DNA of 64,000 nucleotides from an uncultured Candidatus Saccharibacteria bacterium (GCA_964361095.1 CAYHZA010000007.1:3010-67009), one strand, 5' to 3'; shown: positions 6,151 through 63,500, numbered from the stretch's first letter. Notes: generated by a model from the sequence alone, not told the origin. Translations and numbers: made by a program.

Positions 6151-6373
6151 GATAGGGGATAGTAATTAGGTAGTAATAGATTTCGGGTTCGGGGTGCTCG
6201 AGTAAGGAGTTTTCTTTGCAAAGAAGACTCTCTTGTTATATAAAGAAAGTAGCAACATATCTCTCGCGTGAGAGATATTGAAATCATAGCTGATGCCGAA
6301 TGGCTAAGCGATTGAGCGAAATGCTATTTTTTCCATTGCCGATGCGCGGAGCGCTAGGCGATTGGAGGATGTG

Positions 6374-6988
6374 ATGGCAAGTAAGGAAAAGCTCACTGTC
6401 GAGAAGTTCGAGGAGATCACGCGGCGGCAGATTTTGGTGCGTGCCGCATTCTGGGAGCGTCTTCCTGGGGAATCGGGGAAAGTGAGTCGGATTTCCTTTC
6501 CCAATGGTCAGCTTCACGCCCAGATGCGAATGTTCTCCTTTCATCGTGACGAAGACGGCAACGAATCTTTGCTCGATGTGGCGTATTTCTACGAAGAGCC
6601 AAACAGGAGTTACGACGTTGCGGACGGAGTTTCGGTGACCGATATGTGGGAATGCAACGAGGTCATCGGCCGCGAGCGCATCCGGTTGCTTCTTCAAACA
6701 TGGGAAGGCATCGAACCGTGGCGAGTTTCTCCGAAGCCGGTGGTTGCCATCCGTGGGTGGGGAGGGAAATCGTACGAAGAAATCTCTCCCAGCGAGCCGC
6801 ACTTGCTTCAACAGTACGCGCGGCTCCACACTCGCATTGCCGCGATCCTCGCGCGGACGATAAAGGAGCCACACAACCACCAGTACTTCCTCTGCAACGT
6901 GTACTATCGGCTCGGCGCCTTTATCGAAGAGCAGAATCGGTTCCTCGAGCAAGCGCTTGGCCTTGCGGTGCGTACACCTCGCGCCTAA
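6374..6988 (+). CDS. hypothetical protein on a GC-rich, SD-led island
   Basis: GGAGG 7 nt upstream of ATG; GC and GC3 clearly above neighbours; followed by an intrinsic terminator; no recognisable domain. Confidence 0.5.
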   Translation: MASKEKLTVEKFEEITRRQILVRAAFWERLPGESGKVSRISFPNGQLHAQMRMFSFHRDEDGNESLLDVAYFYEEPNRSYDVADGVSVTDMWECNEVIGRERIRLLLQTWEGIEPWRVSPKPVVAIRGWGGKSYEEISPSEPHLLQQYARLHTRIAAILARTIKEPHNHQYFLCNVYYRLGAFIEEQNRFLEQALGLAVRTPRA

Positions 6989-6997
6989 AAACATCTG

Positions 6998-7035
6998 CGG
7001 CTCGTCCCTCGTTTGGGGCGAGCCATTTTTTTGTC
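6998..7035 (+). terminator. intrinsic terminator
   Basis: GC hairpin ggctcgtccc...gggcgagcc followed by a T-run. Confidence 0.6.
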
Positions 7036-7233
7036 TATTCACAATATTCCCAAAAGAAGGTACTCTTTTTCTTGCAGGCCCCATCGTCCCCGCCTGACGG
7101 CCGGCAGGTAGTGGCCTAGCCCCGACTTTCTATTAGGTATATAGAAATGTTGAAAGTCGGGATCGTGCCAACTGTAACCGCTCGCCTTTGGCTCGCGGAC
7201 AGTTGCGGGGAGACACCGCCTTTTTCGTTTAAT

Positions 7234-7306
7234 GCCGCCATCGTCTAGTGGTTAGGACACTAGGTTCTCAGCCTGGTAACCGGGGTTCGACTCCCCGTGG
7301 CGGTAC
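7234..7306 (+). tRNA. tRNA-Glu (anticodon CTC)
   Basis: GCCGCCA acceptor, TCGTCTAGTGGTTAGGACA D-arm typical of tRNA-Glu, anticodon loop TTCTCAG, GGGGTTCGACTCCCC T-arm. Confidence 0.75.
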
Positions 7307-7330
7307 AAGAAAGACTCACATCATACATCA

Positions 7331-7924
7331 ATGCCTCTGGATAATTTAAGTTGGTGGTTGAATATAATACTTAATTTGTTGGGATATTTTGTTTTTCGGT
7401 TTGGGATGATAAGTAGAGGGCGTGCAAGAATTTTAGTAGAATTTGTTGGCGGAGTTGTGCTTGCCACTTCCTTTATATTGATGTTTGCTTTCTTTGGAGT
7501 TGTGAATGTATTGATACTGATACCTATATTTTGGTTCGTAGCAACTCCTATAGTAGAAGTTATAATAGGGAAAATCTATAAAGCCCTTTATAGGAAATCG
7601 GATGAACGAATGTCACGTAAGTTCAATGTCTCGGCTGATAAAATTAGAAAGGAGGTTTACGAATATATGGATATGAATGAGGATGTGTTTATTAAAAAAA
7701 TTGTCGATGATATGAAGATCGGCCAGGGAATCAATAAAGAAAAATTAAGAGGATTCATGAGAAAAACTAAAGAGGATGAGGAGGTTAAGGGGATGGATAA
7801 TACTACAAAAGAACATTTACAACAGCTTTTTGTAACTGCCCTCCATGAAGCAGCTGATGAGCTTCGTGAGGAAGATCTTGAAAAACTTTGGGAACGCTCG
7901 AAAAAAAACATTGAGGAAAAATAG
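7331..7924 (+). CDS. hypothetical membrane protein (2-3 TM, charged C-terminal tail)
   Basis: Long ORF in the AT-rich stretch between two tRNAs; hydrophobic N-terminus, K/E-rich tail. Confidence 0.45.
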   Translation: MPLDNLSWWLNIILNLLGYFVFRFGMISRGRARILVEFVGGVVLATSFILMFAFFGVVNVLILIPIFWFVATPIVEVIIGKIYKALYRKSDERMSRKFNVSADKIRKEVYEYMDMNEDVFIKKIVDDMKIGQGINKEKLRGFMRKTKEDEEVKGMDNTTKEHLQQLFVTALHEAADELREEDLEKLWERSKKNIEEK

Positions 7925-7972
7925 CAAGTAGTAGGGTTGGATAAAAAATAATACAGTTATCTTGTCTAATCT

Positions 7973-8254
7973 ATGAAAAGAATTAACCCGAAACGTATTA
8001 TCATTGGAACTCTCGTTGGGGGCGGCTTATTCTTCGTTTCTGTATTCGGATTATGGAACTGGCTAATAAACCCCGATTTTCCATATTTATGGACTTCGGA
8101 CGAGATACGATGCACCCAAGAGACATCCAAACAGTCATTCGCAAACCATGAGCAACTCCAGCTTTTCTTTGAGAACTGCTTATTGCAAAAGAACGGAGAA
8201 GCGGGTGAAGAAATTTATATACCCCCTGACGTAGTGGTAGAAGAAACAGGATAG
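7973..8254 (+). CDS. hypothetical small protein with N-terminal TM
   Basis: ORF with a hydrophobic N-terminus. Confidence 0.35.
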   Translation: MKRINPKRIIIGTLVGGGLFFVSVFGLWNWLINPDFPYLWTSDEIRCTQETSKQSFANHEQLQLFFENCLLQKNGEAGEEIYIPPDVVVEETG

Positions 8255-8356
8255 GATTGATTTTTATATCTTTTTCTGATATTTTTCATATATGCTTTTT
8301 ATTGCCCCTAGGACGAGACAAAGAAGATAACCCGCATCGAGCGGGTATTTTCCCTT

Positions 8357-8430
8357 GCCCTCGTAGCTCAACTGGATGGAGCAAGACGCTTCTATCGTCA
8401 AGGTTGGAGGTTCAAATCCTCCCGAGGGCG
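8357..8430 (+). tRNA. tRNA-Arg (anticodon TCT)
   Basis: GCCCTCG acceptor pairing with CGAGGGC, GCTCAACTGGATGGAGC D-arm, anticodon loop CTTCTAT, GGAGGTTCAAATCCTCC T-arm. Confidence 0.75.
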
Positions 8431-13706: not shown

Positions 13707-16700
13707 ATGTTTGATTTTTTGAAGAAAATTTCCGGCGGCCGATCGGTCGCGCGCTATAACGAACGCGCGCGCGAGATTAACGCGCTTGAACCCGAAGTCA
13801 AAAAATTTACCGATGAGGAGTTGCGCGCGGCGAGTCTCGCCTTTAAAGAACATATTCAAAGTAAAGAAAAAACAATCGATGATATTCTTCCGAACGCGTT
13901 CGCGTTCGCGCGTGAGGCGGCGAGGAGAACACTAGGACAGCGCCCTTTCGATGTTCAGCTTGTGGGTGGTATGGTGCTCCATGACGGCGCCGTTTCAGAG
14001 ATGATGACCGGAGAAGGAAAGACATTGACCGCGGTACTCCCCGCGTATTTGAACGCGCTCACGGGAGAGGGAGTGCATGTGGTAACCGTGAATGAATATT
14101 TGGCGCGACGCGATGTCGCGTGGATGGGACAAATTTATCGCGCGCTCGGACTTTCGGTCGCGTGTTTGGTTCCGAACGCCGCGTATCTTTATGACCCCAC
14201 TTACGTGCGCGGACCTCGCGGACAGGACGCAGACCTCGCCGAAGAGAAACTACTTCACGAAGATCTAACTTATAGGATTAGAGGCATACTTTTCTCCATC
14301 AAAAACGTTCTTGGTTTGGGGCACAAAGAGAACATTTATCAAAAAGCCATTGAAAGCGAATTATTGAAGGCAGAAATTGTATTTGAACGAGAAAAAGCGA
14401 TAGATGTGCTATATGATGGTAAAAAAATAGGAACTTACCAACCGGATTTTGTGATAGATGGAAAGGTTATTTTGGAGATAAAAGCCGTGCCATTTATAGG
14501 TAAGATAGAAGAAAAGCAGGTTTGGTCGTATTTAAAAGGATCGCCTTATAGGCTTGCGCTCTTGGCAAATTTTGGGGGTAAGGATATTGAGATTAAAAGG
14601 ATTGTTTATGATACGGCGCGTGATAATGGTCCGCGTGAGTCTGCGTCCAGTCAGCGCGAGTCAGCGTTGCTGGATAAGGAACGGGATAGCACCGGAAATT
14701 TTTTGGTTCAACAGGAATTTCTTCGTCCTGTTTCTCGGCGCGAAGCGTATCTCGCCGATATTACGTATGGCACGAATCATGAGTTCGGTTTTGATTATTT
14801 AAGGGATAATTTGGCATATGGCCTGACCGATCAGGTTCAACGCGGCCATCACTACGGCATTATCGATGAAGTTGACAGTATTTTAATCGACGAAGCGCGA
14901 ACGCCTTTGATTATCGCTGCTCCCGACGCGCAATCGAGCGAATACTACAAAACCTTTGCCCGCGTCGTTACGCATCTTAAAAAAGACGAGGATTACACGG
15001 TTGATGAGAAATTGCGGTCGTCGGCGATTACGGAGGCCGGTATTGAAAAGGTGGAAAAAGTCGTGGGAATCCATAATCTATACGCGCCCGAAAATATGCG
15101 CCTCGTGCATTACCTCGAAGAAAGTCTGCGGGCAATGGCGCTTTTCCATCGCGATAAAGATTATGTCGTAAAAGACGGGGAAGTCATTATTGTCGATGAA
15201 TTTACGGGGCGCATGCTCCATGGACGGCGGTATAACGCCGGTTTGCATCAGGCGATCGAGGCGAAAGAAGGAGTGCTCGTAAAAGAGGAGTCCCGTACGT
15301 ACGCGAAGATTTCCATTCAGAATTACTTCCGGATGTATAAGAAAATTGCGGGAATGACGGGAACAGCCCAAACGTCCGCCGAAGAGTTTCACAAGGTATA
15401 TAGCTTGGAAGTGGTGAGCGTTCCAACGAATCAGCCGATGGCGCGGAAAAATCTTCCCGATTTTATCTTCCGGAATAAAGAGGCGAAATTAAGATCGGTA
15501 GTCGCGGAGGTGAAACAGCGTTTCGAGAAAGGTCAGCCGATCCTCTTGGGAACTCCATCCATAGAAAAAAACGATTTTCTCTCGGCGCATCTTACGCGCG
15601 CCGGAATTCCGCACGAGGTTTTGAACGCGAAGAATAACGAACGCGAGGGAGCGATCGTCGCGCAGGCGGGAAGACTTAAGGCGGTTACGGTGGCGACGAA
15701 CGTCGCCGGCCGTGGCGTGGATATTATTTTGGGCGGCAACCCCTTAAATCCCGAGGAGGCAAAAAAAGTGCGGGATCTCGGCGGGTTGCACGTAATTGGC
15801 ACGGAGCGAAACGAAGCGCGGCGGATAGACAACCAGTTCCGCGGCCGCGCGGGGCGTCAGGGCGATCCCGGTTCTTCGCAGTTTCTTCTCTCGCTCGATG
15901 ACGATCTCCTTCGGATTTTTGGCGGCGATCGCATTAAAAGTTTAATGGAACGGTTTGATCTTCCCGAGGATCAGCCGATAGAGATGGGAATTGTTTCCAA
16001 GGCGGTGGAGCAAGCGCAAGCGAAAGTGGAAGGCGCGAACTTTGATATGCGGAAACACCTTCTTGAATATGATGACGTGTTAAACAAACAGCGCGCGTCC
16101 ATTTACCGCAAGCGACAAGAAATTCTTCAAAGCATGAACCGCGATACGTTGGCGCTTATTATTTTCGAGGCGGCGAGCGGTTATTTCGACGGCGTGGCGC
16201 AGAAGCTTTTCGGCGACGAGGAAACGTTTACGGGAGAAAATACGGACGAGCTTAAAAAGCTGTTTGAAGAATCCGTAATCGCGACTAAGGAACAGCCGTT
16301 GCCCAAAGAGCCGACCCGCGAAAGTATCCGTGAACTTCTTACGAAGCGAAGCGTTGAAGTGACGGTTGATCCGCAGACGTTGAACAGGGTATTGAGCATT
16401 CTTGATTTGCTTTGGATGACGCATCTTGAAGACTTGGAGGCGCTTTCCGAATCAATCGGTCTTCGCGCGTATGGCCAACGGGATCCGCTTGTCGAGTACC
16501 GGCGCGAGGCGCACAACTTGTTCAAAAATTTTTGGGGCAATTTTAACACGTGGATATTCACGAATTTATTTAAACTGGCGAGTTTGCAGGCGGCCTCCGG
16601 TGTGGCAACGGCGAATCCTTCACCGCGTCCGGCGATGGTAGTGGCGGGAAATCAACCAAGTTCCGGAAAAACAGTAGGCAGAAATGATCCGTGCCCGTGC

Positions 16701-48635: not shown

Positions 48636-48654
48636 CAAGCCAGCCTACATAACA

Positions 48655-53340: not shown

Positions 53341-53403
53341 CTGGTTTTTCGATAGTGCTTTATAGAAATGCTATAATAGTGTCATAATCTAATTTTCAAT
53401 TTT

Positions 53404-54328: not shown

Positions 54329-54429
54329 TAGTTTCTTGTGCATTAGGAATTTGCCAAGCGTTTTGCTGTTGTGTGTGGTTCGGGGCTTTTTACTTGTCTT
54401 GAGTTTTATCGAAGAGTTACAATAAATCT

Positions 54430-54708
54430 ATGATCACAATCATCGGCAACGACGTGAGGCGCGGTGGAGCAAAGATAGGCTGGGTTCGAGCGAACGATGT
54501 CTATAACGAAGACGGCAAGAAGGTTGGATATTTTTCAAGTAATGATATTTATGACACAAATAATCATAAGCTTGGCTATATCGAGGGGAATTATCTTTAT
54601 GCATCTGACGGACACAAAATCGAACTTGATGATATTCGGAAGGAAATAACCGGCGGTAGTTTGTCCGACTTGGAGCGCGCGGCGGTGCGTCTGCTTTTGG
54701 GAGATTAA
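54430..54708 (+). CDS. hypothetical small protein with an internal repeat (..GKK.GY..ND.YD..)
   Basis: About three roughly 20-aa repeats in a 92-aa ORF. Confidence 0.35.
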   Translation: MITIIGNDVRRGGAKIGWVRANDVYNEDGKKVGYFSSNDIYDTNNHKLGYIEGNYLYASDGHKIELDDIRKEITGGSLSDLERAAVRLLLGD

Positions 54709-54749
54709 TAAGAGCTCAAATTTTTTGTTCGCCGATTTTGCTGAATTGA

Positions 54750-54800
54750 ACCCCATTACAACCCAGAAATTCCGGCCGTGAGGCCGGATTGTAACGGGGT
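54750..54800. promoter_or_regulatory. palindromic element ACCCCATTACAA ... TTGTAACGGGGT with an internal ccggcc-gtga-ggccgg hairpin
   Basis: 11 of 12 reverse-complement arms, 27-nt spacer; upstream of the gene at 54861. Confidence 0.45.
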
Positions 54801-54860
54801 GAATGTATGATATATACTGATGAGTAGTATTATTTTTGAATTCTTCCGAGGAGGAACGCC

Positions 54861-55361
54861 GTGCGATTCTTGATGGGCGCGTTTTTGTTTTTTGTTGGCG
54901 TGGTATCTCTCGCGGTTGCCGAAGATATGCCGTCCGATCCGAACAGAATATCCCTTCTTTTCGCGGCTTCGGAGTTCTCGCTTGACCCCGCAATTCACTC
55001 CAAATTTTTCTTTGAAGATTACCGTCCCGATAAGATACGCTTCATCGATATACGAGACTTTTGTAGCCGGAAATGCGTGATGTCGGTGGCCATGATCTCT
55101 TGGGTAGGCGCCGCCATAGAATCCTATCGTGGCGACGGTAAGTTCAGACTTAGATCACGCGTTAAGCAAGAGCCGACAGTAAGCGCCAGTTTTGAAGTTA
55201 GTGACGGACAACGAGCAATATTCATTCCTCGCCGTTCAATGCCACGTATTGTCTTTCCGCTTGAAAATGGGAATTCACTACTTGCAGTTCATATCACTGG
55301 CAACGGCATTGCTTTGACGTATGCGCGCACGTTTGGTCCACCGAGGCCGAAGCGTCACTAA
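54861..55361 (+). CDS. hypothetical secreted protein
   Basis: N-terminal signal peptide MRFLMGAFLFFVGVVSLAVA. Confidence 0.4.
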   Translation: MRFLMGAFLFFVGVVSLAVAEDMPSDPNRISLLFAASEFSLDPAIHSKFFFEDYRPDKIRFIDIRDFCSRKCVMSVAMISWVGAAIESYRGDGKFRLRSRVKQEPTVSASFEVSDGQRAIFIPRRSMPRIVFPLENGNSLLAVHITGNGIALTYARTFGPPRPKRH

Positions 55362-55443
55362 AGGGCTCTGTGTGAAAATACAGAGTCCTTATTTTTTACG
55401 TAGGAAGCTTTTTTATTTTGCTCTAATCTCGAGAGCAGTTACA

Positions 55444-56655
55444 ATGCTTATGATGCCTTTGTTTTATTCAAAATTTCCCGATTCGCCCGGTGTTTACTTA
55501 ATGAAAGACGTTACCGGACGGATTCTCTATATCGGCAAAGCCGCGAATTTGAAGCGGCGTGTTTCGAGCTATTTTTTGAGACCTCACGGTTCTCGGATCC
55601 AAAAACTGGTGAGTGAGATCAAAAAAATAGATTATCGGTCAACCGATACCGCGATCGAGGCGCTGATCTTGGAAGCGCAACTTATTAAAAAATATCTGCC
55701 TCCATATAATATCCGAGAGAAGGACGATAAAAGTTTTCTCTATGTTGAAATCACCAAGGAGAAATTTCCGCGGGTTTTGCTTGTAAGGGGCAAAGAAAGA
55801 CTTGCCCAGCCGCACTTTTCTTTGAAAAGTGCGGCTGGGTTCGGACCATTTACTTCCGCTTCGAGTATCCGCGAGGCATTGCGTATTATTCGGAGGATCT
55901 TTCCCTTCAGTGTTCACTCGCCGGATGCGAAATTTACGAGGCCATGTTTTGAGCGTGAGATAGGGCTTTGTCCCGGAACCTGTGTTGGGGCGATAAACCG
56001 TGTTGATTATCTTAAGAATATTCGTAACCTTAAGCTGTTTTTCCAAGGCAAAAAAGATAGGATAGTAACCTCTCTCACCAAAGAGATGCGGATTGCGAGT
56101 AAGAAACTTGAATTTGAAAAAGCAGAAAAATGGAAGCGGCAAATATTCGCGCTTCGGCATATTCAAGATGTGGCATTGATCACAGAAGAACGGATTGCAA
56201 GCAGCGCGTTACAGGCAATAAGAATTGAGGGTTACGATATTTCGAATATTTCCGGTACTTCCGCGGTGGGGTCAATGGTAGTATTTGCCGGCAATGAACC
56301 GGAGAGAAACCAGTATCGGAAGTTCAAGATCAAATTATTTACCGAACCGAATGACGTGGGAATGTTATCGGAGGTTTTGCGGAGGCGTTTTCATAATGCG
56401 TGGCCGTTGCCTGTTCTGATTCTTGTGGATGGCGGTAAGGGCCAGGTGCATGCCGCAAAAGACGTGATAAGAGAGTTCGGTTTAAGGATTCCCGTCGTGG
56501 GTATCGCGAAGGGGCCGGAACGTAAACGCAATGACGTGGTAGGCATTATTCCCAAGGGCATCGCGAAATCAACGCTTATTAATGTGCGCGATGAGGCGCA
56601 CCGCTTCGCGATTGCGTATCACAAAACTTTGCGAAGCCAAGCTTTTCTCCGGTAA
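55444..56655 (+). CDS. uvrC: excinuclease ABC subunit C, truncated form lacking the C-terminal (HhH)2 domain
   Basis: GIY-YIG PGVYLMKDVTGRILYIGKAANLKRRVSSYF, UvrBC-interaction and RNase H-like regions; about 400 aa ending before where the HhH would be. Confidence 0.75.
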   Translation: MLMMPLFYSKFPDSPGVYLMKDVTGRILYIGKAANLKRRVSSYFLRPHGSRIQKLVSEIKKIDYRSTDTAIEALILEAQLIKKYLPPYNIREKDDKSFLYVEITKEKFPRVLLVRGKERLAQPHFSLKSAAGFGPFTSASSIREALRIIRRIFPFSVHSPDAKFTRPCFEREIGLCPGTCVGAINRVDYLKNIRNLKLFFQGKKDRIVTSLTKEMRIASKKLEFEKAEKWKRQIFALRHIQDVALITEERIASSALQAIRIEGYDISNISGTSAVGSMVVFAGNEPERNQYRKFKIKLFTEPNDVGMLSEVLRRRFHNAWPLPVLILVDGGKGQVHAAKDVIREFGLRIPVVGIAKGPERKRNDVVGIIPKGIAKSTLINVRDEAHRFAIAYHKTLRSQAFLR

Positions 56656-56748
56656 GCAACGCAAGATTGACAAACATTCGGAAGCGCAGTTAGATAGAAA
56701 GAGAACATTGTGTTATTTACGCTGGTGAACCTTTGGCGAGGAGGGTGC

Positions 56749-57072
56749 ATGGCGTATGGGAAAGAGTGGATTCAGGAAAAAATGCGCTCGGATTCTCTGC
56801 GGCGCGCGGGGTGGAAAGTTTTCATCCTTTTCGGGTACTTCGTTCTAGGACCCTGCCTTGGAATGGTGTTCGCTTTTTTCATCTATAAAGCGTGGCTTTA
56901 CTCGCCGACGCTTTACGTGCTCACGCTCATGAGCGGTTTGCTCGCGTGGAGTTACCGAAAACGCTTGAGCGTGCGATTCTCGAGCATTTGCGGATTCACA
57001 TCAACCTTTTTCACGCGGGGGATGCTATGGGTAACCACGAGATTTTCCTCGGTTCTGCGGTCGTGGATGTAG
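56749..57072 (+). CDS. hypothetical two-TM membrane protein, SD-led and GC-rich
   Basis: GGAGGG 4 nt before ATG; two TM helices. Confidence 0.3.
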   Translation: MAYGKEWIQEKMRSDSLRRAGWKVFILFGYFVLGPCLGMVFAFFIYKAWLYSPTLYVLTLMSGLLAWSYRKRLSVRFSSICGFTSTFFTRGMLWVTTRFSSVLRSWM

Positions 57073-57224
57073 GGTGGCGGGGAGGGAGTGCCGCTATCGT
57101 CATTTCCCTTGTTTTTGGGCTTTGGGTTCTGTTATTCGCCATCTGGTGTTTCGCGCATTACATTTACGGTCTTGACGCGGATGATGTCTCGACCGACGTC
57201 GACGACCCACAGCGCAATCAGTAG
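57027..57224 (+). CDS. hypothetical small membrane protein, or the frameshifted continuation of the previous ORF
   Basis: Overlapping alternative-frame ORF with a TM helix, ending before the terminator at 57268. Confidence 0.2.
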   Translation: MGNHEIFLGSAVVDVGWRGGSAAIVISLVFGLWVLLFAIWCFAHYIYGLDADDVSTDVDDPQRNQ

Positions 57225-57267
57225 TCAGTATCGAAATCAAAGCGACTTGCAAGAAGTAAGTCTTATG

Positions 57268-57305
57268 GTTTCACGATAAGCCCGGTATGTAACAAAACCC
57301 CGGGC
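57268..57305 (+). terminator. intrinsic terminator
   Basis: aagcccgg...ccgggctt stem + TTTTTTT. Confidence 0.65.
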
Positions 57306-57324
57306 TTTTTTTACCCAAAAAATT

Positions 57325-58113
57325 ATGTTGCCCCAAGACAGGCATCACACTACAATAAGAGCTATGCGAGCGCTTCGGACAAGGTTTGGCAAGGATATCG
57401 TAGCGGAATTTTTACCGCCCCGCCGGAGATCCCAAAACGTTATTATTCTTTGCGGCGGGATGCCGGGTTATCCGTCGGCCAAATTTCCGCTCCTGGATTT
57501 TTTTTCAAAAAAAGGATATTGGGTTTTTTCCCCGCGCTATCGGGGAAGCTGGGAGAGCGGCGGAAGATTTTTAAGAATTTCTCCGGATCGGGATGTGATT
57601 GCTGTTATAGACCAGCTTCCCTTGGGATTTAAAGACTTATGGAATAACAAAACGTATCGTGTAAAACCCGATAAGATTTATTTGATCGGCGGAAGTTTCG
57701 GGGGACCGGCGGTAATCTTATCGTCGCGCGACGCGCGGATTACCAAGGCAATCGCCATTTCTCCCGTGGTTGATTTTCGGGTGCGAAGCAAGGTGGATCC
57801 GATCGATTGGCTGGGAAAATTTGTTAAAGAAGCATTCGGAGAAGGATACCGTTATTCAATGAAGGATTGGAATAAATTAAAGAATGGCCGCTTTTATAAT
57901 CCCGTCGCGTACAGTGACGATTTGGACGGGAAAAAGCTTTTTATTATTCACGCGAAAGATGATGATGTGGTGGCGTGGAAGCCGGTTCAAAAATTTGCCC
58001 GCCGCGTCGGGTCTCAACTAATGCTTTTGCGGAGCGGAGGGCATCTTTCGATGCCGCTTATCGTCAAACCGCGTTTTTATAAGCGGATACATAAATTTTT
58101 AAAATCAAAATAA
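57325..58113 (+). CDS. alpha/beta hydrolase (S9 prolyl oligopeptidase / dienelactone hydrolase-like)
   Basis: Nucleophile elbow GGSFGG, downstream Asp/His context. Confidence 0.65.
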   Translation: MLPQDRHHTTIRAMRALRTRFGKDIVAEFLPPRRRSQNVIILCGGMPGYPSAKFPLLDFFSKKGYWVFSPRYRGSWESGGRFLRISPDRDVIAVIDQLPLGFKDLWNNKTYRVKPDKIYLIGGSFGGPAVILSSRDARITKAIAISPVVDFRVRSKVDPIDWLGKFVKEAFGEGYRYSMKDWNKLKNGRFYNPVAYSDDLDGKKLFIIHAKDDDVVAWKPVQKFARRVGSQLMLLRSGGHLSMPLIVKPRFYKRIHKFLKSK

Positions 58114-58116
58114 GAT

Positions 58117-58965
58117 ATGTTTTATATCGGCGGACATGTTTCGGCCTCTGGAGGACTTTCGAAGACGATCGAAAACGCGGAGAAAATCGGCGCGAATGCC
58201 ATTCAATTTTTCGGTTCTTCTCCGCGCCAGTGGCGCGTGACCAAACATTTCGGAGACGATATTGCGGCGTTTCGATTAGCACTTAAAAAAAGCCCCATCA
58301 AACAAGTATTTCTTCATGCACCCTATCTTATTAACCTTGCGAGTCCCGCCGAGGATTCACGCGCGCGGTCTCGAAATCTTTTGACGGATCATTTTAAGAT
58401 TGCCGAGGCGATTGGCGCTCAAGGGCTCATTTTTCATATCGGTTCTCGCAAGGGCTTATCAAAAGAACAAGCGGAAAAAATTATTGTTCGTGAGTTACGG
58501 GAGACGCTTCGTGGTGTTTCCGGAAAAAGTTTTCTTGTTATAGAAAACAGCGCCGGAGGAGGGGAAAGTGTGGGGAGTACCTTAGAGGAAATTGCATCTA
58601 TTATGAAAGCGGTTGATTCAGGGCGTCTTATGATGTGCCTTGATACGGCGCATGCTTTTGAGTCGGGAATGATACCCGGTTATACGGAAGAGACCGTTAA
58701 AGAGCTTGCGGGGAAGATAAAAAAAACCGTGGGATTTCACCGTCTCGTGGCGCTCCATGTAAATGACAGCAAAACCGTTTTTAACTCCCATCATGATCGC
58801 CACGAAAATATAGGGAAGGGATATATCGGGTTGGAGGGTTTTCAAGCGCTCGCTCGCCATAAAATATTCAAGAAGAAGCCGTGGATTTTAGAAGTTCCCG
58901 GATTTGACGGAAATGGCCCCGACAAAAAAAATGTCGACATTCTCAAGTCTTGTTTTACTTCATAG
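58117..58965 (+). CDS. nfo: endonuclease IV (AP endonuclease, TIM barrel)
   Basis: IGGHVSASGGL...IQFFGSSPRQW N-terminus; HAPYLINLAS, HIGS, HVNDSK metal-ligand motifs. Confidence 0.85.
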   Translation: MFYIGGHVSASGGLSKTIENAEKIGANAIQFFGSSPRQWRVTKHFGDDIAAFRLALKKSPIKQVFLHAPYLINLASPAEDSRARSRNLLTDHFKIAEAIGAQGLIFHIGSRKGLSKEQAEKIIVRELRETLRGVSGKSFLVIENSAGGGESVGSTLEEIASIMKAVDSGRLMMCLDTAHAFESGMIPGYTEETVKELAGKIKKTVGFHRLVALHVNDSKTVFNSHHDRHENIGKGYIGLEGFQALARHKIFKKKPWILEVPGFDGNGPDKKNVDILKSCFTS

Positions 58966-58990
58966 CGCCATAATGTTGTAGAATATAACC

Positions 58991-59500
58991 ATGGCAGCTT
59001 CATCTGGAAGACGTGCGTCGGCTCTTTATCTTCGGAACTTTGTGTTCGGGGTCGAGGATAGTTTGGTTTCAACCGTAGGACTTGTTTCCGGTGTCGCGAT
59101 CTCCGGTCTTCCGCGGGCGGCCATATTTATGACGGGCATCATATTGATTTTTGTGGAGGCATTCTCGATGGCTATCGGATCCTTTCTTTCGGAAGGATCG
59201 GTAGAAGATTATCTTGGGCAGAAGAATGAAAGCAGAAAACTTTCGTACGTTGCCGGGATTATTATGTTTGTTTCATATTTTATCTCAGGTTTTGTTCCGT
59301 TGTTTCCGTATCTTTTTTTTGAAGTTAGCGGCGCACTTACGTTGTCGATTGTCGTTTCACTCATTGCTCTTTTTTTCATGGGTGTCGCAAAGGGGAAAAT
59401 GTCACATACTCCGTGGATAAGGAGTGGATTCAAAATGTTTCTCGTGGGAGGAATCGCTATTGCGGTGGGAGTGACTATAGGAAGTCTGGTGCGTCTTTAA
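58991..59500 (+). CDS. VIT1/CCC1-family membrane protein (DUF125)
   Basis: RNFVFGVEDSLVSTVGLVSGVA signature, then four TM helices. Confidence 0.65.
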   Translation: MAASSGRRASALYLRNFVFGVEDSLVSTVGLVSGVAISGLPRAAIFMTGIILIFVEAFSMAIGSFLSEGSVEDYLGQKNESRKLSYVAGIIMFVSYFISGFVPLFPYLFFEVSGALTLSIVVSLIALFFMGVAKGKMSHTPWIRSGFKMFLVGGIAIAVGVTIGSLVRL

Positions 59501-59529
59501 GAGCTTGGATTTTATGATACACTAAGACT

Positions 59530-59784
59530 ATGAGCAACATTAAGGAGGGTTTTTTTATTCCCATCGAAGAAGCTATATTGAATCCTTTGACGGGGGTCGT
59601 TCTTTGGATTGTTTTTTCTATTCTTTTTCTTCTATGGGCGGCAATGAGTGTGATTCTCCGCTATCATTGGAAAAGTTATAGCTTTGAACAGAAAAAAATT
59701 ACTCGATCGAAGCAAGTCTATTTTACGGGGTCGTTTCTGTTTATTGCCATTATGATTTTTTCTTTGATTTTTTATTCGCTATGA
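59530..59784 (+). CDS. small membrane protein
   Basis: 84 aa, two TM helices. Confidence 0.35.
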   Translation: MSNIKEGFFIPIEEAILNPLTGVVLWIVFSILFLLWAAMSVILRYHWKSYSFEQKKITRSKQVYFTGSFLFIAIMIFSLIFYSL

Positions 59785-60308
59785 TAGACATAAAACCGGG
59801 CGAGAGGGTAATTTTTGAAGTACGGCGCCATTGGTATGTGCTTCTTGTCGAAACATTGTCGCTCCTCCTCTTTTTCGCCGTTCCCTTTGTGGCCTTCATA
59901 GTGTTACTTGTGGGAGGTTTTCCTTTGAGCGCCAAAATAATTTTTCTTTTAGTTTTTCTTAAAGCGGCGTGGTTCCTCTTGGGATGGATAATTTTTTTCG
60001 TCATTTGGACGAACTATTATCTTGATGTATGGATTATTACCGACAAACGGATTATTGATATTGAACAGAAGCACCTTTTTAATCGAAATATTTCCGAATT
60101 TGGACTGGATAGAGTTCAGGATGTTACCATAGAAGTCTCGGGATTTCTTCCGACGTTGCTCCACTTTGGAAACATTCACGTTCAGACCGCGGGAGAAACA
60201 AGGTTGTTTATCCTTAAGCATGTTCCGCGCCCCGACAAAGTAAAAGATATTATTTTCAAACAGCAAGATGAGTTTATGAGCTCTCTCCGGAGTGGGAAGC
60301 AATTCTAA
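59781..60308 (+). CDS. bacterial PH-domain membrane protein (DUF304/YdbT-like)
   Basis: GERVIFEVRRHWYVLL, two TM helices, then a PH-like beta region. Confidence 0.55.
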   Translation: MIDIKPGERVIFEVRRHWYVLLVETLSLLLFFAVPFVAFIVLLVGGFPLSAKIIFLLVFLKAAWFLLGWIIFFVIWTNYYLDVWIITDKRIIDIEQKHLFNRNISEFGLDRVQDVTIEVSGFLPTLLHFGNIHVQTAGETRLFILKHVPRPDKVKDIIFKQQDEFMSSLRSGKQF

Positions 60309-60310
60309 CT

Positions 60311-60544
60311 ATGTCTCGATTCAAAAAATTACGCATTCTTGAATTTTTGGTGATTGGTGTCGTTATGGGAACGATCGAGGATTTGATCGCGGTGTCTCTG
60401 GTGACGGATGCGACGATCAACCTGAATGTTATTTGGATTGTGTTCTTGGTCGCCCTGCCCTTCGCTTTTTTAAGTGAAATAGTGGTTGACCATCCGCGAT
60501 TTTGGGAGAAAATTTTCCCGCCAAAAGAAAAAGAGAAGATGTAA
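60311..60544 (+). CDS. small membrane protein
   Basis: 77 aa, two TM helices. Confidence 0.35.
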   Translation: MSRFKKLRILEFLVIGVVMGTIEDLIAVSLVTDATINLNVIWIVFLVALPFAFLSEIVVDHPRFWEKIFPPKEKEKM

Positions 60545-60695
60545 TAAAAAACTACGCGAAGATCGGGGGCCGTCAGAGCCGATCTGTATACCGAACGCCC
60601 TCGGGTTTTCGTCATCACTCTATGGTTCAAAACACACTATATGAAAAAACTGAGAGGGATGATAAAATAATGTTTATTTGTTATACATTGATACT

Positions 60696-61544
60696 ATGAA
60701 AAATAAATACGCAACTCTTGTTTTCGCGGTGGTTTTGGGCGTGGCGCTTATCGGTGTTTTGATCTACGCGCAGGTGATGAGAAAAGTTTCTGTTTCTCAG
60801 AAATATGCGGATGAGATTGTAGTTCAAAATCCGGAAGAAGATCAAACAGTCAAAAGTCCGCTTGAAGTGCGCGGCAAAGCAAGAGGATCGTGGTTCTTCG
60901 AAGCAAATATTCGCGTGGATATTCTTGACGCGAATAATAAGGTGATAACCCAAACAAACGGAATGGCGGAAGGCGAATGGATGACGGCTGATTTCGTGCC
61001 TTTCAAATCTACCGTCGTTTTTAAAACACCCGATACAAAAACAGGTATTTTGAGAATTAAGAATGATAATCCAAGCGGTCTTCCGGAGAATGAAAAATCA
61101 TTTGATGTTCCAATCGTTTTCGGAGAAGAAGAGACGGCGTCAATGGACGATCCCCGCACGATGAAGCTTAATATCTTTTTTGGGAGTTCAAAGTTTGATC
61201 CGCAAGGGGAGCGATGCGATATGACTTATTCGATTTCACGCTCTATTCCGAAGACAACATCCGTGGCAAAAACTTCGTTTCGTGAGCTTCTTCTTGGTCC
61301 GACCGCCCTTGAAAAAAAGGAAGGTTATTTTACGAGTATTCCCGATGGCGTAAAGTTGCAGGGGATCTCGGTTGAAAACGGAATCGCAAAAATTGATTTT
61401 AGTAAGGAACTTGATCTGGTCGGAGGATCTTGCCGCGTGACGGCTATTCGATCTCAAATCACCGAAACATTAAAACAATTTCCGACGATTCAAAATGTGG
61501 TTATTTCCATAGGCGGAAGAACAGAAGACATTCTCCAGCCATAA
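60696..61544 (+). CDS. Gmad2 (Ig-like) + GerMN domain lipoprotein or secreted protein
   Basis: N-terminal signal-anchor; SPLEVRGKARGSWFFEANIRVDILD (Gmad2-like); C-terminal ...FRELLLGPTALEKKEGYFTSIP...GIAKIDFSKEL (GerMN-like). Confidence 0.55.
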   Translation: MKNKYATLVFAVVLGVALIGVLIYAQVMRKVSVSQKYADEIVVQNPEEDQTVKSPLEVRGKARGSWFFEANIRVDILDANNKVITQTNGMAEGEWMTADFVPFKSTVVFKTPDTKTGILRIKNDNPSGLPENEKSFDVPIVFGEEETASMDDPRTMKLNIFFGSSKFDPQGERCDMTYSISRSIPKTTSVAKTSFRELLLGPTALEKKEGYFTSIPDGVKLQGISVENGIAKIDFSKELDLVGGSCRVTAIRSQITETLKQFPTIQNVVISIGGRTEDILQP

Positions 61545-61611
61545 TCTTTGCACGTGGGGCGCCGGAACGGATAAATTTGACGTATAAATAGTTTTGATGT
61601 ATAATCTAAGG

Positions 61612-62319
61612 ATGAAAAAAGTTGTCCTGCTTTTTGCCGCGCTTGGCTTGCTTCTATTTTTTGGGGTTTCAACCGCAAACCAAGAAGTCGGTGTGAGTCG
61701 GGAAGAAACTACACATTTCACGCTTACTTCGTTTCTTTATGACGGTGGGCGCTCGGTTTCTTTTGAAGTTTTCGCGGATGGCATTATGCCACGAGGAGCG
61801 CGAAAGGCGTTTCTTTCGGGTTCACTCGATCTGCATTCTGGTTTCGGATTTACCAAAGATTCTATTTATTTTAGTCGGCTTGCATTGCCCGATGGCGCCC
61901 TCCAAATTCGGGCAGACGGAAAGAAAATTTTTTTAGACGTTGATCTTTCGGAAATTCAGGATTTTCGGGCGTTTCGGCGCGCAAACGGCGGAACACTCTC
62001 CGAAATTACGGACCCGTCTGTTTTCCCTTCCATGATTGTTAGCTTTGTATGGGAAGTAGGAAAGCCGATTCCAACCTATGGCGGGAAAATCCAGTCCTTC
62101 TATGCGCGTCCGGACGGAGAGTGGACGCGGAGCGTTATCACGAACCTCAAACGTAATGTTCAAGGAACGGGAGAAATTTTCGGATTCCGAAGTTCCGCGG
62201 CAAGAATACGAAATTTTGAGTATACCGAAGAAGGAAGTGAAGTTTCCGTTTCTTCAGACGGCATTTTTCCTCCGGTCATTTCTTTTCCTAAAGACCCCAC
62301 GCTTCCCGAGGAACCGTAA
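61612..62319 (+). CDS. hypothetical secreted protein
   Basis: Signal peptide MKKVVLLFAALGLLLFFGVSTA. Confidence 0.45.
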   Translation: MKKVVLLFAALGLLLFFGVSTANQEVGVSREETTHFTLTSFLYDGGRSVSFEVFADGIMPRGARKAFLSGSLDLHSGFGFTKDSIYFSRLALPDGALQIRADGKKIFLDVDLSEIQDFRAFRRANGGTLSEITDPSVFPSMIVSFVWEVGKPIPTYGGKIQSFYARPDGEWTRSVITNLKRNVQGTGEIFGFRSSAARIRNFEYTEEGSEVSVSSDGIFPPVISFPKDPTLPEEP

Positions 62320-62338
62320 TATCAGAGAGAGGAGTTTA

Positions 62339-62398
62339 CCCCGTGAGAAGCATAGCTTCTCACGGGGGCTTGACATGTTGCATTTTTAAAGGTACAAT
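62339..62398 (+). promoter_or_regulatory. palindromic element CCCCGTGAGAAGC-ata-GCTTCTCACGGGG abutting the consensus promoter TTGACA-N17-TACAAT
   Basis: Perfect 13-bp arms; -35 62370-62375, -10 62393-62398; drives the GC-rich gene at 62485. Confidence 0.6.
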
Positions 62399-62484
62399 CT
62401 CCCCGTTGTACCTTGATTTAATTTTGGTCAGTTTTCCCTCCTAACACCCTTCCCCCCTCTTAAAAGAGGAGAAAGGAATAGAAC

Positions 62485-63399
62485 GTGAAGAAGTTCGTGC
62501 AGTTCGCAGTTGGTCTCGTCGTTCTCGTTGTGTTTTCCATGTTCCAATTCACGGAGGCCGGTATCCGGCCACCGAAGCTCCAGAAGCCCGTGGTTCTCTC
62601 GTGGGAAACAGGTGAACAGTACATGTACACCTACTTCTGTGACACCGATGGGAACACCTGCTACTATGTTCAGGTTTTCGGGAGTTTCCAGAGGAACAGG
62701 ACGACTGGCGAGGGAAGCACGGAGTCCTTGTGGATCATCGGCCTCCGGACAACAGGTTCTTTCTCGAATCCGAACTTCTCCTACTCCTTTGTCGCGAAGA
62801 CTCCGGAGCTTGGGGAGGTTTCTTTCATGGAAAGCTTCGGGCATGGCAATAGGCTGAATCCCGACGCGGCAAGGATTTCGATTTTGGTGAACGCGATGCT
62901 CGACGAAGGCGTGGCCGGTGACTGTTCGGTTGCTGAAGACAAGGTCATCTACTGCACCAAGGTCGACCCACGTTCGGTATTCTCCGATCCGGCCGTTTCG
63001 ATTTCCGCTTCGACAAGCGCGCCTGCCGCGTTCGTCGAAATGACCCATGGTGGAACGGTTTTCCAGAAGAAGGGAGCTATGCAAAATCTGGAAAGCCACC
63101 GAGTGGCGGGTAACGCCGAGATTGACGATGACAGCATCGCTCTCGGATTTTCCGTAAGGAACACCTTTGTATATCTTTACGACCGGCACGCGAGGATCAA
63201 CACCGTGGGAGAAGTTTTTCCCACAACGATTGACTTTCCGTGCCTCGGCGAACAGTGCTACGGCGTGAAAGGAATCGTCTCGGACGAAACAGCGGCTTCT
63301 TTGGTTTTCGGGAAAAAGTTGGGCCTCCCGACCGCCGAAGACATGAAGCGTCTTCTCAATGAGGGGATGCAACAGATGGGCATCATGCCCACGCCATAG
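62485..63399 (+). CDS. hypothetical secreted protein on a GC-rich island (GTG start, AGAGGAGAAAGG RBS)
   Basis: Signal peptide MKKFVQFAVGLVVLVVFSMF; GC/GC3-rich; the overlapping 337-aa minus-strand ORF is a shadow. Confidence 0.5.
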   Translation: MKKFVQFAVGLVVLVVFSMFQFTEAGIRPPKLQKPVVLSWETGEQYMYTYFCDTDGNTCYYVQVFGSFQRNRTTGEGSTESLWIIGLRTTGSFSNPNFSYSFVAKTPELGEVSFMESFGHGNRLNPDAARISILVNAMLDEGVAGDCSVAEDKVIYCTKVDPRSVFSDPAVSISASTSAPAAFVEMTHGGTVFQKKGAMQNLESHRVAGNAEIDDDSIALGFSVRNTFVYLYDRHARINTVGEVFPTTIDFPCLGEQCYGVKGIVSDETAASLVFGKKLGLPTAEDMKRLLNEGMQQMGIMPTP

Positions 63400-63500
63400 G
63401 AGAACTGACCAACAGCACCAGAAGTACCCCGGGTCGCGCACATCATCGTCGCACGGCTCGGGCTTTTTTTATTTACACAAAGGTTTGATACAGTGAGGGC

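Follow-up and report, generated by a model that had tools for sequence, protein, structure and literature searches.

[quoted passage not shown] The DNA analysed here (the window, 64,000 nt) comprises bases 3010-67009 of a contig in a Patescibacteria MAG from Hainich groundwater, and it is chromosomal DNA of a groundwater Parcubacteria (CPR/Patescibacteria) bacterium. The original prediction had interpreted seven SD-led ORFs (islands 1 to 7) as serial imports; its recognition of a distinct set stands, and this set does not consist of assembly chimeras, but the SD-using, higher-GC donor that it proposed is not supported.

No SD precedes 72 of the 82 ORFs on the contig. SD-like pairing is absent upstream of the genes for L10, L12, MraZ, RsmH, PBP, MurE, TIM, MurB and HPF, and likewise of those for SecA, CopA, PpsA, Eno, TypA, TGT, UvrABC and Nfo; this gene-by-gene check, from L10 through Nfo, bears out the earlier claim that host genes are SD-less. 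A -10 box lies 4-10 nt before the start codon in approximately 20 of the 82 ORFs (expectation, 7%), with a peak at 6 nt. The gene tpiA, which had been considered leaderless, gives no sign of this, with an intergenic gap of 17 nt and no -10 box close to its start. The core genes of the host start translation without an SD; many of them are apparently leaderless, with a -10 box ending approximately 6 nt before the ATG, and others lie in tight operons with A/T-rich spacers in front. SD-poorness is general in related Parcubacteria, where GGAGG leads 2.7% of 1,749 ORFs, and roughly one-half of the 16S sequences published for Parcubacteria have lost the anti-SD motif or show no detectable one (PMC9297842). 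On the contig, rplJ stands without a preceding rplK-rplA, an arrangement consistent with the subgroup without uL1, whose members often lack the anti-SD motif.

The core and SD-led sets contrast plainly in SD use and composition. GGAGG or GAGGAG leads 10 of the 82 contig ORFs, two of them beyond the window, and a Pfam domain is found in one of these 10 as compared with 48 of the 72 others. GC is 0.539 in the SD-led ORFs versus 0.455 in the rest (p=8e-7) and GC3 is 0.604 versus 0.479 (p=1e-4), in a set that was partly picked by eye for such traits; across related genomes, the excess of SD-led ORFs is small (+0.02 GC, +0.03 GC3). The set-wide enrichment anticipated for the seven ORFs is present, but GC3 is not raised in island 2 (0.47) and is only 0.56 in islands 4 and 5. 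GGAGG as such is frequent on the + strand, with 104 copies, 87 of them inside host genes. Of the 16 copies outside host genes, 7 are SD-positioned before an ATG-started ORF that is 80 aa or longer, the baseline being 3.1% (p=2.5e-7); these seven include a copy at 62814, within island 7. GGAGG stands 4-6 nt ahead of the ATG at 6374, 36909, 38874, 41281, 48085 and 56749, so that the spacing of 4-8 nt proposed for all seven islands holds for six, but not for island 7, where GAGGAG lies 13 nt before the start. Promoters lie 24-160 nt upstream of the SD-led units, and intrinsic terminators were found after islands 1, 4 and 5 and an ORF at 54861. A unit of this kind typically comprises a sigma-70-type promoter of its own, a 40-160-nt leader, a strong GGAGG at a distance of 4-6 nt from the start codon, an ORF that is GC-richer and without a known domain, and an intrinsic terminator. 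Approximately nine such stand-alone transcription units are scattered over the window backbone (10 on the contig), and they are accessory genes of the lineage.

All islands lie on the + strand. Island 1 (GGAGG, 6364-6368; ORF, 6374-6988; terminator, 6999-7024) encodes 204 aa with a GC of 0.56 and a GC3 of 0.67, is called by ENA, Logan and PGAP, and has a tRNA-Glu gene on its 3' side, at 7234. A single distant homologue is known, P0128 (33% identity, E=4.6e-10); it resides in another SD-less genome, where it likewise combines a GC excess with a GGAGG leader, a promoter and a terminator. Island 2 (GGAGG, 36899-36903; hairpin terminator, 37201-37222) is an ORF of 88 aa with a GC of 0.54, and its product is rich in Cys and Arg; the ORF had been placed at 36907-37175, but its true extent, 2 nt shorter, is 36909-37175. 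Island 4 (GGAGG, 41270-41274; ORF, 41281-41601; terminator, 41628-41653) encodes 106 aa at a GC of 0.54, with GC1/2/3 of 0.64/0.40/0.56, and is called at full length by PGAP and Logan. Island 5, with a promoter (TTGATT-17-TATACT, 48013-48041), AAGGAGGAGG at 48074-48083, an ORF of 105 aa rich in Trp and Arg (48085-48402) and a terminator (48415-48440), forms a complete transcription unit; whether it is a coding gene is uncertain, as it is for island 2.

The earlier list of seven overlooked an SD-led, GTG-started ORF at 54861-55361 (GGAGG, 54850-54854; terminator, 55361-55390; 166 aa; GC 0.49), which Logan calls in its 166-aa form and whose product has an N-terminal signal-like helix. Island 6 has GGAGG at 56740-56744 and two overlapping frames, ORF a (56749-57072; 107 aa with two predicted TM helices) and ORF b (56946-57224, the PGAP call); periodicity of the coding type follows frame a to approximately 56945 and frame b thereafter. 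Island 7 (promoter TTGACA-17-TACAAT, 62370-62398; GAGGAG, 62466-62471; GTG-started ORF, 62485-63399; T-run terminator, approximately 63440-63475) encodes 304 aa with a signal peptide, has a GC of 0.54 and a GC3 of 0.68, and is an absolute ORFan, searches against 5.8 billion proteins and against 1.84 billion representative ones having recovered only the protein itself. Two products had been thought to be secreted; the signal peptide of island 7 is clear, but there is no other clear case, island 6 being membrane-protein-like.

In relatives, tRNA_bind, FKBP and TGT follow in this order, and UvrA, UvrC and Nfo are adjacent. Several SD-led slots are empty or otherwise filled in these syntenic genomes: relative L096 lacks island 4, with TGT followed directly by the homologue of the - strand gene at 41658; the 54861 ORF lies between UvrA and UvrC, which adjoin each other in relatives; and island 6 lies between UvrC and Nfo, a pair that is adjacent in relative L124. 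These synteny gaps corroborate the view of the SD-led ORFs as a compositionally distinct, lineage-specific accessory set within a conserved backbone.

Island 3 is the most extreme case of the SD-led set. Its promoter (TTGACT-17-TGTTATAGT, 38682-38710) opens a promoter and leader region (38682-38873) with a long hairpin, P1 (38752-38810), a second hairpin, P2 (38827-38843), and GGAGG at 38863-38867 within the conserved GGAGGTATGCG; 17 of the 23 predicted pairs of P1 carry compensatory changes across 22 loci, and the leader matches no Rfam family. The ORF (38874-39650; 258 aa; GC 0.61, GC3 0.83) includes a C-terminal variable region (VR) at approximately 39523-39645 and is followed by a 3' element (39651-39755), which comprises five CTTGA repeats (39653-39708), a hairpin GAGGG-CTTGA-CCCTC, and a GC hairpin at 39704-39743 (GAGCCTTCGGCGC...GCGCCGGAGGCTC) with a T-run after it. 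This element occupies the position expected of an IMH/target-recognition hairpin plus terminator, shows 73-92% DNA identity at the same position in approximately 45 loci, and is repeated after each paralogue in those genomes of the family that carry tandem paralogues of the target. The homologues of island 3 number more than 1,267; among the best 120, identity is 67-86% and no Pfam domain occurs. In all, 76 loci of the family occur in GTDB species representatives, mostly Patescibacteria MAGs, in variable genomic contexts with none conserved.

Relatives of the island 3 locus carry a template repeat (TR), bAvd and a reverse transcriptase (RT; RVT_1), and their AAC-rich TR matches the VR. Cognate TR and VR in these relatives differ at 12-21 of approximately 32 adenines and at 1-2 of approximately 89 other bases, and the VR of the window differs from related TRs at 15 of the 26 columns with adenine and at 4 of the 62 without it (p=5e-7). 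Comparative sequence analysis thus establishes island 3 as the variable-protein (target) gene of a CPR-type DGR, a kind of gene reportedly described by Paul et al. in 2017, and the original statement that none of the seven ORFs has an assignable function stands for the others but not for this one. No TR, Avd or RT is present on the contig (69 kb), and island 3 is here a remote or orphaned target; its TR, Avd and RT must either reside at another genomic site or have disappeared, and its C-terminal variable region bears the signature of adenine-directed hypermutation. Among the SD-led genes, island 3 alone resembles DGR clade 2, which is restricted to Patescibacteria and has targets without recognisable domains (Roux et al. 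2021, PMC8144416): the C-terminal VR of approximately 120 nt matches an AAC-rich TR, mismatches are confined to template adenines, a GC hairpin lies just 3' of the VR, no domain is recognisable, as reported for CPR targets, and relatives have bAvd and RT adjoining the target and, in some genomes, multiple targets in tandem. It differs in that the target stands alone, with TR, Avd and RT absent within 69 kb. Not found in the DGR literature compared are the covarying 5' leader hairpin, the invariant strong SD in SD-poor hosts, the five CTTGA repeats and the GC excess of the target only.

The DGR cassettes of relatives separate the properties of the gene from those of its surroundings. Across 36 cassettes, GC is 0.54 in the target, 0.38 in Avd, 0.38 in RT and 0.41 in the flanks, and an SD precedes one of the 34 RT genes and none of the 35 Avd genes. 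Because RT and Avd of the same cassette are SD-less and have a host-like or lower GC, the SD and GC-richness are the target gene's own and not the mark of a donor. The GGAGGTATGCS leader and the GC excess occur in nearly every host of the family, and the offset persists over approximately 70 hosts with a GC of 0.32 to 0.60. For the island 1 and island 3 families, sequence comparison demonstrates that further SD-poor hosts share the SD, the GC excess and the predicted promoter and terminator. In these two testable families, the odd composition and the SD belong to the gene; they are not shown to be donor leftovers.

Four other explanations were weighed. It is highly improbable that assembly created the islands as chimeras by fusing foreign reads into the contig. 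In each of three runs, the Logan assembly breaks at 38603 and at 39719, leaving 38604-39718 (island 3) as the sole island region without a matching independent assembly and its 5' junction in the ENA/NCBI assembly only; however, breaks are expected at a DGR target because of similar copies in co-occurring genomes and a varying VR, and tRNA_bind and TGT, between which the island lies, are also neighbouring genes in relatives. The 3' junction is supported by Logan contig L002, which starts at 39719 inside the conserved 3' hairpin and continues into TGT, and Logan contigs are 100% identical, flanks included, across islands 1, 2, 4, 5, 6 and 7 and the 54861 ORF. It is possible, though we think it rather doubtful, that 36909-37175, 48085-48402 and perhaps one of the overlapping ORFs in 56749-57224 are small RNA genes or chance ORFs in GC-rich transcribed spacers. 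Island 5 has no codon-position periodicity (GC1/2/3 of 0.53/0.55/0.56), its open frames on the two strands are of comparable length, and no gene caller, ENA and Logan included, calls it; the GC3 of island 2 is below its GC1 and GC2; both were missed by the ENA caller and are absent from the protein collection; and no homologue of these small islands was found in 175 loci. Yet each has GGAGG 4-5 nt before the ATG of an 88-107-codon ORF that ends just before a terminator, an arrangement arising by chance at approximately 3% of intergenic GGAGG, and island 2 is called on Logan contigs L173 and L174 and has Cys spacing of the CxxC type, while frame a of island 6 has coding-type periodicity up to 56945.

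Very unlikely, in our judgement, is the idea that the SD-led ORFs are native genes selected for very high expression, with the SD and C/G-ending codons as translational optimisation and no transfer. The third-position excess of the DGR target family is mainly C (0.40 versus 0.23 in host genes) and its strong SD is conserved in the extended form GGAGGTG or GGAGGTA, but L10 and L12 on the contig are SD-less with a C3 of only 0.21-0.23, and the host thus shows no such optimisation signature; moreover, the ORFans lack orthologues even in relatives that share the backbone. The import originally proposed, in which the islands were acquired recently and independently of one another from SD-using donors of higher GC (phage, plasmid or a different phylum) and still deviate from host composition and translation signals, is unlikely, though less so. 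Consistent with it are the coupling of atypical GC and GC3 with an SD, the lineage-specific insertions relative to syntenic relatives, ORFan status, which is typical of mobile-element cargo, the proximity of island 1 to tRNA-Glu, and the lack of a conserved context for the DGR target family, whose GC equals that of the host only in GC-rich Parcubacteria, which fits spread from GC-rich CPR lineages. No donor was found, however: Pfam, PHROGs, NCBIfam and PADLOC searches gave no donor-indicating matches, scans of viral contigs revealed no relatives of islands 1, 3 and 7, and no integrase, transposase or shared flanking repeats occur at the islands. The proposed homology check for a donor lineage placed the homologues of islands 1 and 3 almost entirely in SD-poor CPR genomes, apart from a few records labelled, as deposited, Gammaproteobacteria, Methanotrichaceae, Candidatus Angelobacter or Actinobacteria. 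The restriction of GC-richness and the SD to the target within single DGR cassettes is hard to reconcile with composition as the mark of a donor, and the GC offset kept across so many hosts also speaks against import. The DGR target has likely moved horizontally among CPR genomes; for the ORFans such movement is unproven, and the five islands without homologues may derive from recent transfer from an unsampled donor.

Our preferred reading, accessory units that maintain their own SD and composition, has partial parallels. As in horizontally acquired genomic islets and ORFans, GC and GC3 are off the backbone, and the SD-led genes are lineage-specific, intercalated in conserved synteny and without assignable function; here, however, there are no mobility genes, direct repeats, shared att-like sequences or detectable donors, and the deviation is constant across hosts in two testable families and not common to functionally linked neighbours. 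Leaderless-dominated bacterial genomes reportedly form group C of GeneMarkS-2 (Actinobacteria, Deinococcus). They resemble the present genome in having a -10 box ending approximately 6-7 nt before the start codon at many first-in-operon genes and an SD mainly on leadered mRNAs, but here the -10 signature is predicted in only approximately one-quarter of genes, and operon-internal genes are also SD-less.

How an SD-poor host translates SD-led genes would most likely have a simple answer, namely that a working anti-SD is retained. GGAGG is conserved at a fixed spacing in most of approximately 70 orthologues of island 3, which implies such an anti-SD, and the host ribosome has presumably kept it. 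The leadered, GC-richer and more structured accessory mRNAs would depend on it, whereas core mRNAs that are leaderless or rich in A/U would not; if so, the SD and GC-richness would be a maintained expression mode, not foreign relics. In Bacteroidia, ribosomes are blind to the SD because the anti-SD is sequestered, and a strong SD is kept on few genes, such as rpsU (PMC7797042, PMC9976891, PMC13000453). The likeness lies in nearly all genes being SD-less and a small set having a strong conserved SD; the SD-led genes here, however, are accessory ORFans and a DGR target instead of a ribosomal-protein autoregulatory gene, and many host genes look leaderless, in contrast to the upstream adenines of the Bacteroidia mode. 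The parallel suggests that in this lineage the SD is a special channel instead of the default signal.

The window corresponds to positions 3010-67009 of a 69,295-bp contig (ENA ERZ1292643, Hain_H51_01um_R3_134), from which it departs at a single base. The contig comes from Hainich groundwater (0.1 µm filter fraction), carries nearly all of its genes on the + strand and encodes the same proteins as an NCBI MAG labelled 'Patescibacteria group bacterium' (locus tags AAB652_*). For 77 called genes, we tabulated GC, GC3, the 25 nt upstream and the energy of the duplex between the Shine-Dalgarno sequence (SD) and the anti-SD. As the original prediction stated, the host core genes are without an SD; this applies to L10, L12, MraZ, RsmH, PBP, MurE, TIM, MurB, HPF, SecA, CopA, PpsA, enolase, TypA, TGT, UvrA, UvrB, UvrC and Nfo. 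In approximately 20 genes, a TATAAT-like hexamer ends 4-10 nt before the start codon, mostly at exactly 6 nt, against an expectation of 7% per gene; the starts at 17364, 34369, 37299, 46613, 54430, 57364, 58991, 59530, 60696, 61612 and 63501, for instance, have it 6-9 nt (mostly 6-7) upstream. Because these -10-like hexamers end just before the start codons, they suggest that many mRNAs of this CPR genome would be leaderless. Where an SD-led unit has a detectable promoter-like site, that site lies 24-160 nt upstream. The related genomes that we retrieved are SD-poor too: a 4-mer SD of any kind precedes approximately 10% of their long ORFs, and a GGAGG leader was seen for 2.7% of 1,749 ORFs. 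As a separate observation, SecA (1010 aa; 13707-16739) has a precomputed match to the nuclease-like Pfam family PDDEXK_3 between two SecA_DEAD matches, which may represent an inserted domain.

Seven ORFs (islands 1-7, with the start of island 2 corrected: 6374-6988, 36909-37175, 38874-39650, 41281-41601, 48085-48402, 56749-57072 and 62485-63399) had been singled out as GC-rich, GGAGG-led and foreign to an otherwise SD-less host. GGAGG is not rare as a motif, there being 104 copies on the + strand (87 of them inside host genes) and 25 on the - strand. Outside host genes, the + strand has 16 copies, of which 7 sit 4-8 nt before the ATG of an ORF of at least 80 aa, compared with a baseline of 3.1% at random intergenic positions (p=2.5e-7); one of the seven (62814) is internal to island 7. 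When the small ORFs of the original prediction are added and the starts corrected, GGAGG or GAGGAG leads 10 of 82 contig ORFs. The original list was incomplete, the SD-led ORF at 54861-55361 having been overlooked.

As a group, the 10 SD-led ORFs are indeed distinct in composition, with a mean GC of 0.539 versus 0.455 (p=8e-7) and a mean GC3 of 0.604 versus 0.479 (p=1e-4), and their supposed lack of assignable function is largely borne out by the presence of a Pfam domain in 1 of the 10, compared with 48 of the 72 others (p=9e-4). The contrast in GC and GC3 is weaker for islands 2, 4 and 5 individually: relative to the 72 non-SD genes, the z-scores of the islands range from +0.8 to +3.5 for GC and from -0.1 to +5.3 for GC3, the deviation is strong for islands 1, 3, 6 and 7 only, and GC3 is 0.47 in island 2 (corrected ORF 36909-37175) and 0.56 in each of islands 4 and 5. 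Island 5 shows no codon periodicity, and the coding status of islands 2 and 5 is doubtful. Island 7 does not have its SD at the predicted 4-8 nt; its start is a GTG, with GAGGAG 13 nt upstream. Island 6 has coding-type GC periodicity that follows the SD-led frame from 56749 to approximately 56945, beyond which it shifts to that of ORF 56946-57224, called by PGAP; the stretch 56749-57224, which has the same sequence in independent assemblies, could represent a pair of small membrane-protein genes that overlap, or a single gene with a frameshift. Opposite islands 1, 3 and 7 lie antisense ORFs of 232-337 aa (6284-7084, 38883-39581 and 62428-63441, all on the - strand); they are most simply a by-product of high sense-strand GC3, exceed the real gene in length in two cases and form a trap for annotation by ORF length. 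Several SD-led ORFs were missed, or given a wrong start, by gene callers whose training rests on the SD-less majority, and CPR pipelines may undercount such genes.

That the islands are assembly chimeras, an artefact that the original prediction had allowed for, is largely ruled out by independent Logan assemblies, which are 100% identical over all islands except for 38604-39718. Logan contigs of three runs match the window at 100% identity over 1-8429, 28385-35068, 35039-38603, 39719-48953 and 48925-64000; with no SNPs between them, the small ORFs offered nothing for a dN/dS-type test. In all three runs, the assemblies end at 38603 and resume at 39719, bracketing the promoter, leader, ORF and 3' element of island 3; these breaks probably mark the limits of sequence common to other copies in the community, or heterogeneity of the variable region (VR) of this gene.

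Synteny with relatives supports reading the islands as lineage-specific accessory genes in a conserved backbone. With TGT as the anchor, we found relatives whose backbone proteins are 55-65% identical to those of the window; a metagenome scan with the same anchor yielded none exceeding 65% identity, which precludes comparing presence and absence on a recent timescale. In these relatives, the tRNA_bind gene, the FKBP-type gene and TGT follow in order, and the window has island 3 at that place. One relative (L096) has the homologue of the gene at 41658(-) directly after TGT, where the window has island 4 between; in another (L124), UvrA, UvrC and Nfo are adjacent, and the window adds four ORFs (including that at 54861) and then island 6 and a peptidase. 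Presence/absence polymorphism versus syntenic relatives was therefore seen for the ORF at 54861 and for islands 3, 4 and 6; across the 80 TGT loci, no island homologue was present. Because the slots differ in syntenic relatives, the islands are lineage-specific relative to the backbone.

The notion of a foreign, SD-using donor of higher GC is not supported. Homologues of islands 1 and 3 reside almost entirely in other SD-poor CPR genomes, a few records bearing other taxon labels; scans of viral contigs for islands 1, 3 and 7 returned zero relatives, and for island 7, neither a set of 5.8 billion clustered proteins nor one of 1.84 billion representatives contains a homologue. Searches of all island proteins against Pfam, PHROGs, NCBIfam and PADLOC gave nothing meaningful. 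No Pfam domain of an integrase or transposase was detected on the contig, the islands share neither sequence nor repeats and have no flanking repeats, and island 1 is the only one close to a tRNA gene (tRNA-Glu, 245 bp downstream of it). Integron gene cassettes, which are promoterless ORFs each followed by attC and arrayed beside an integrase, are unlike the islands, and we rejected them as an explanation: the islands are scattered over 56 kb, have no shared 3' element and no integrase on the contig, and at least islands 3, 5 and 7 have clear promoters of their own, with candidates before islands 4 and 6.

Island 3 could be assigned to a known system. Comparison with its relatives identifies the 258-aa product as a predicted variable protein (target) of the CPR-restricted clade of diversity-generating retroelements (DGRs), a clade whose CPR targets are described as having no recognisable domains (Roux et al. 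2021, PMC8144416). More than 1,267 homologues of the protein exist; among the best 120, full-length identity is 67-86% and Pfam domains are absent. The protein is more conserved than TypA, RsmH and MurE of the same relatives. A scan of GTDB species representatives found 76 loci, mostly in Parcubacteria/Paceibacterota with a few under other taxon labels, among which the gene neighbourhood is not conserved. Distant family members had no Pfam match either. For the C-type lectin or Ig-like fold expected to carry the VR of a DGR target, a profile search of the PDB gave 0 matches at E up to 10. The AlphaFold model, built on a low-diversity alignment of 63 sequences since no usable homologue falls below 67% identity, reached a pLDDT of 41, too poor for a fold search. 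A structured non-coding RNA is ruled out by strong codon periodicity (GC1/2/3 of 0.59/0.42/0.83) and by conservation at the protein level.

In relatives, the target is followed by a promoter, a conserved RNA of approximately 230 nt, an AAC-rich repeat matching the last ~120 nt of the gene, a bAvd gene and then an RVT_1 reverse transcriptase (RT), and such a repeat and RT, with RVT_1 and bAvd domains, lie beside the orthologue in 36 of the 76 loci. The RNA-like sequence (TTGCTAATGCAGGCGCGGTCACGGCTTCGCCTCGC...) has its own promoter directly upstream of the template repeat (TR), as at L033:10555-10790, in L013, L014, L015, L034 and approximately 30 other loci; it matched no Rfam family at gathering thresholds and may form a structured domain at the 5' end of the CPR DGR template RNA. 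At L033:11330-12885, the RT is split into two ORFs, the second combining the C-terminal RVT_1 part with a domain of the uracil-DNA glycosylase superfamily. Cognate TR/VR pairs of relatives mismatch at 12-21 of ~32 TR adenines and at 1-2 of ~89 other bases. Compared with four related TRs, the VR of the window differs at 15 of 26 all-adenine columns and at 4 of 62 invariant non-adenine columns (p=5e-7). The 69-kb contig contains no TR, Avd, RT or upstream RNA, and the copy in the window is a remote or orphaned target, of the kind that escapes RT-anchored surveys (Roux et al. 2021, PMC8144416). We also observed a toxin-antitoxin pair, MNT (NTP_transf_2) and HepT, after ppsA at 29049-29661 of the window; in a close relative (L071), a DGR target directly follows ppsA.

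The family gene is flanked by conserved RNA elements. In nearly every host, it is led by aGGAGGTATGCS-ATG. The 5' leader of island 3 (38717-38873) comprises a hairpin of ~23 bp at 38752-38810 with the conserved base UGAGACGAG/CUCGUCUCA, in which compensatory changes across 22 loci occur at 17 of the 23 predicted pairs, and a short GC hairpin at 38827-38843, followed by the invariant GGAGGUAUGCS-AUG; the long hairpin is missing in about a third of family members. The 80 nt past the stop codon are 73-92% identical in approximately 45 loci and hold five CTTGA repeats and a GC hairpin at 39704-39743; from its position only, we take this 80-nt element as a putative IMH. Rfam at permissive thresholds gave no family for the leader or the 3' element. 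In several loci, the 3' element is repeated after a second, tandem paralogue of 37-70% identity. Such tandem target paralogues, with divergent N-terminal regions, occur at L014:11110-11922, L015:11061-11804, L029:7688-8461, L030:7684-8463 and L064:4719-5582, and they fit a modular design, the N-terminal domains being joined to a conserved variable C-terminal one. Most carry a separate SD-like leader and all carry a separate copy of the 3' element; the L064 paralogue has a signal-peptide-like N-terminus. The conserved 5' and 3' elements could serve to find remote targets that RT-anchored surveys have missed.

High GC and the SD would then be properties of the DGR target gene and not the mark of an imported block, as comparison across hosts indicates. 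In nearly every host, the island 3 family gene is richer in GC than its ±10 kb flanks (e.g. 0.52 versus 0.34), being equal only in GC-rich hosts. Across 36 DGR cassettes, mean GC is 0.54 in the target, 0.38 in both Avd and RT, and 0.41 in the flanks, and GGAG or GAGG was found before the start in 1 of 34 RT genes and 0 of 35 Avd genes. Because the target is GC-rich and SD-led and RT and Avd are neither, one functional unit holds both expression styles, and atypical GC combined with an atypical translation signal is no proof of foreign origin on its own. Island 1 and its one homologue (P0128, 33% identity) are a second example of SD and GC-richness going with the gene: the P0128 gene, flanked by PaaX_M and MiaA in another SD-less genome, is led by GGAGG, has a promoter and terminator of its own and reaches a GC of 0.51 against 0.45 around it.

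The source of this GC-richness has several candidates. One is that GC-rich Parcubacteria have repeatedly passed on target genes; another is that selection acts on the structure or stability of the mRNA. A third is avoidance of adenine in connection with DGR mutagenesis; A3 is depleted in the target, but T3 is depleted as well, the excess at third positions is mainly C (0.40 versus 0.23), and adenine avoidance was rejected as the sole cause. Simple translational selection is not supported because the host genes for L10 and L12 are without this third-position bias.

The explanation that we propose is a CPR chromosome with two styles of translation initiation, in which core genes would use leaderless or A/U-rich, SD-free starts and a minority of stand-alone, leadered, GC-richer accessory genes would use a strong SD. 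Because GGAGG is strictly conserved at fixed spacing in most hosts of the target, their ribosomes can presumably still use an anti-SD, which implies that SD-poor Parcubacteria with a DGR target would keep a usable one. A retained SD predicts this even though a published survey missed the motif in about half of Parcubacteria: CCTCCT was found in only 48% of Parcubacteria 16S sequences, and its absence overlapped the group lacking uL1 (Tsurumaki et al. 2022, PMC9297842). On our contig, rplJ-rplL is preceded, instead of by rplK-rplA, by 960 bp with no ORF or Rfam match (L003:740-1698), which is compatible with the uL1-lacking Parcubacteria subgroup, where the anti-SD motif is often undetected. 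This stretch lies ~1.3-2.3 kb upstream of the window start, and an SD-led NTP-transferase gene precedes it. To read the anti-SD, we sought the 3' end of the 16S rRNA, but neither the window, the rest of the contig nor any of the 175 retrieved loci contains an rRNA gene.

Taken together, the observation behind the original prediction is confirmed with corrections, its accessory-gene reading is supported and its foreign-donor reading is not. Island 3 is one more DGR target of CPR, its family of over 1,200 proteins with no annotated domain being hereby identified as such targets, and the other islands are ORFans, island 1 having its single distant homologue. A long shot, in our estimation, is that the anti-SD is kept in SD-poor Parcubacteria as a separate, possibly conditional translation channel for a few leadered accessory mRNAs or, if the anti-SD is truly absent, that the invariant GGAGGUAUGCG is a non-ribosomal RNA signal. 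The mRNAs of such a channel would include those of DGR variable proteins, with their covarying 5' hairpin and CTTGA-repeat 3' element. For a few strong SDs within an SD-blind lineage, the nearest parallel known is rpsU in Flavobacteria (PMC7797042, PMC9976891, PMC13000453); if true, the anti-SD channel would be the CPR counterpart of this rpsU/bS21 specialised-ribosome circuit.
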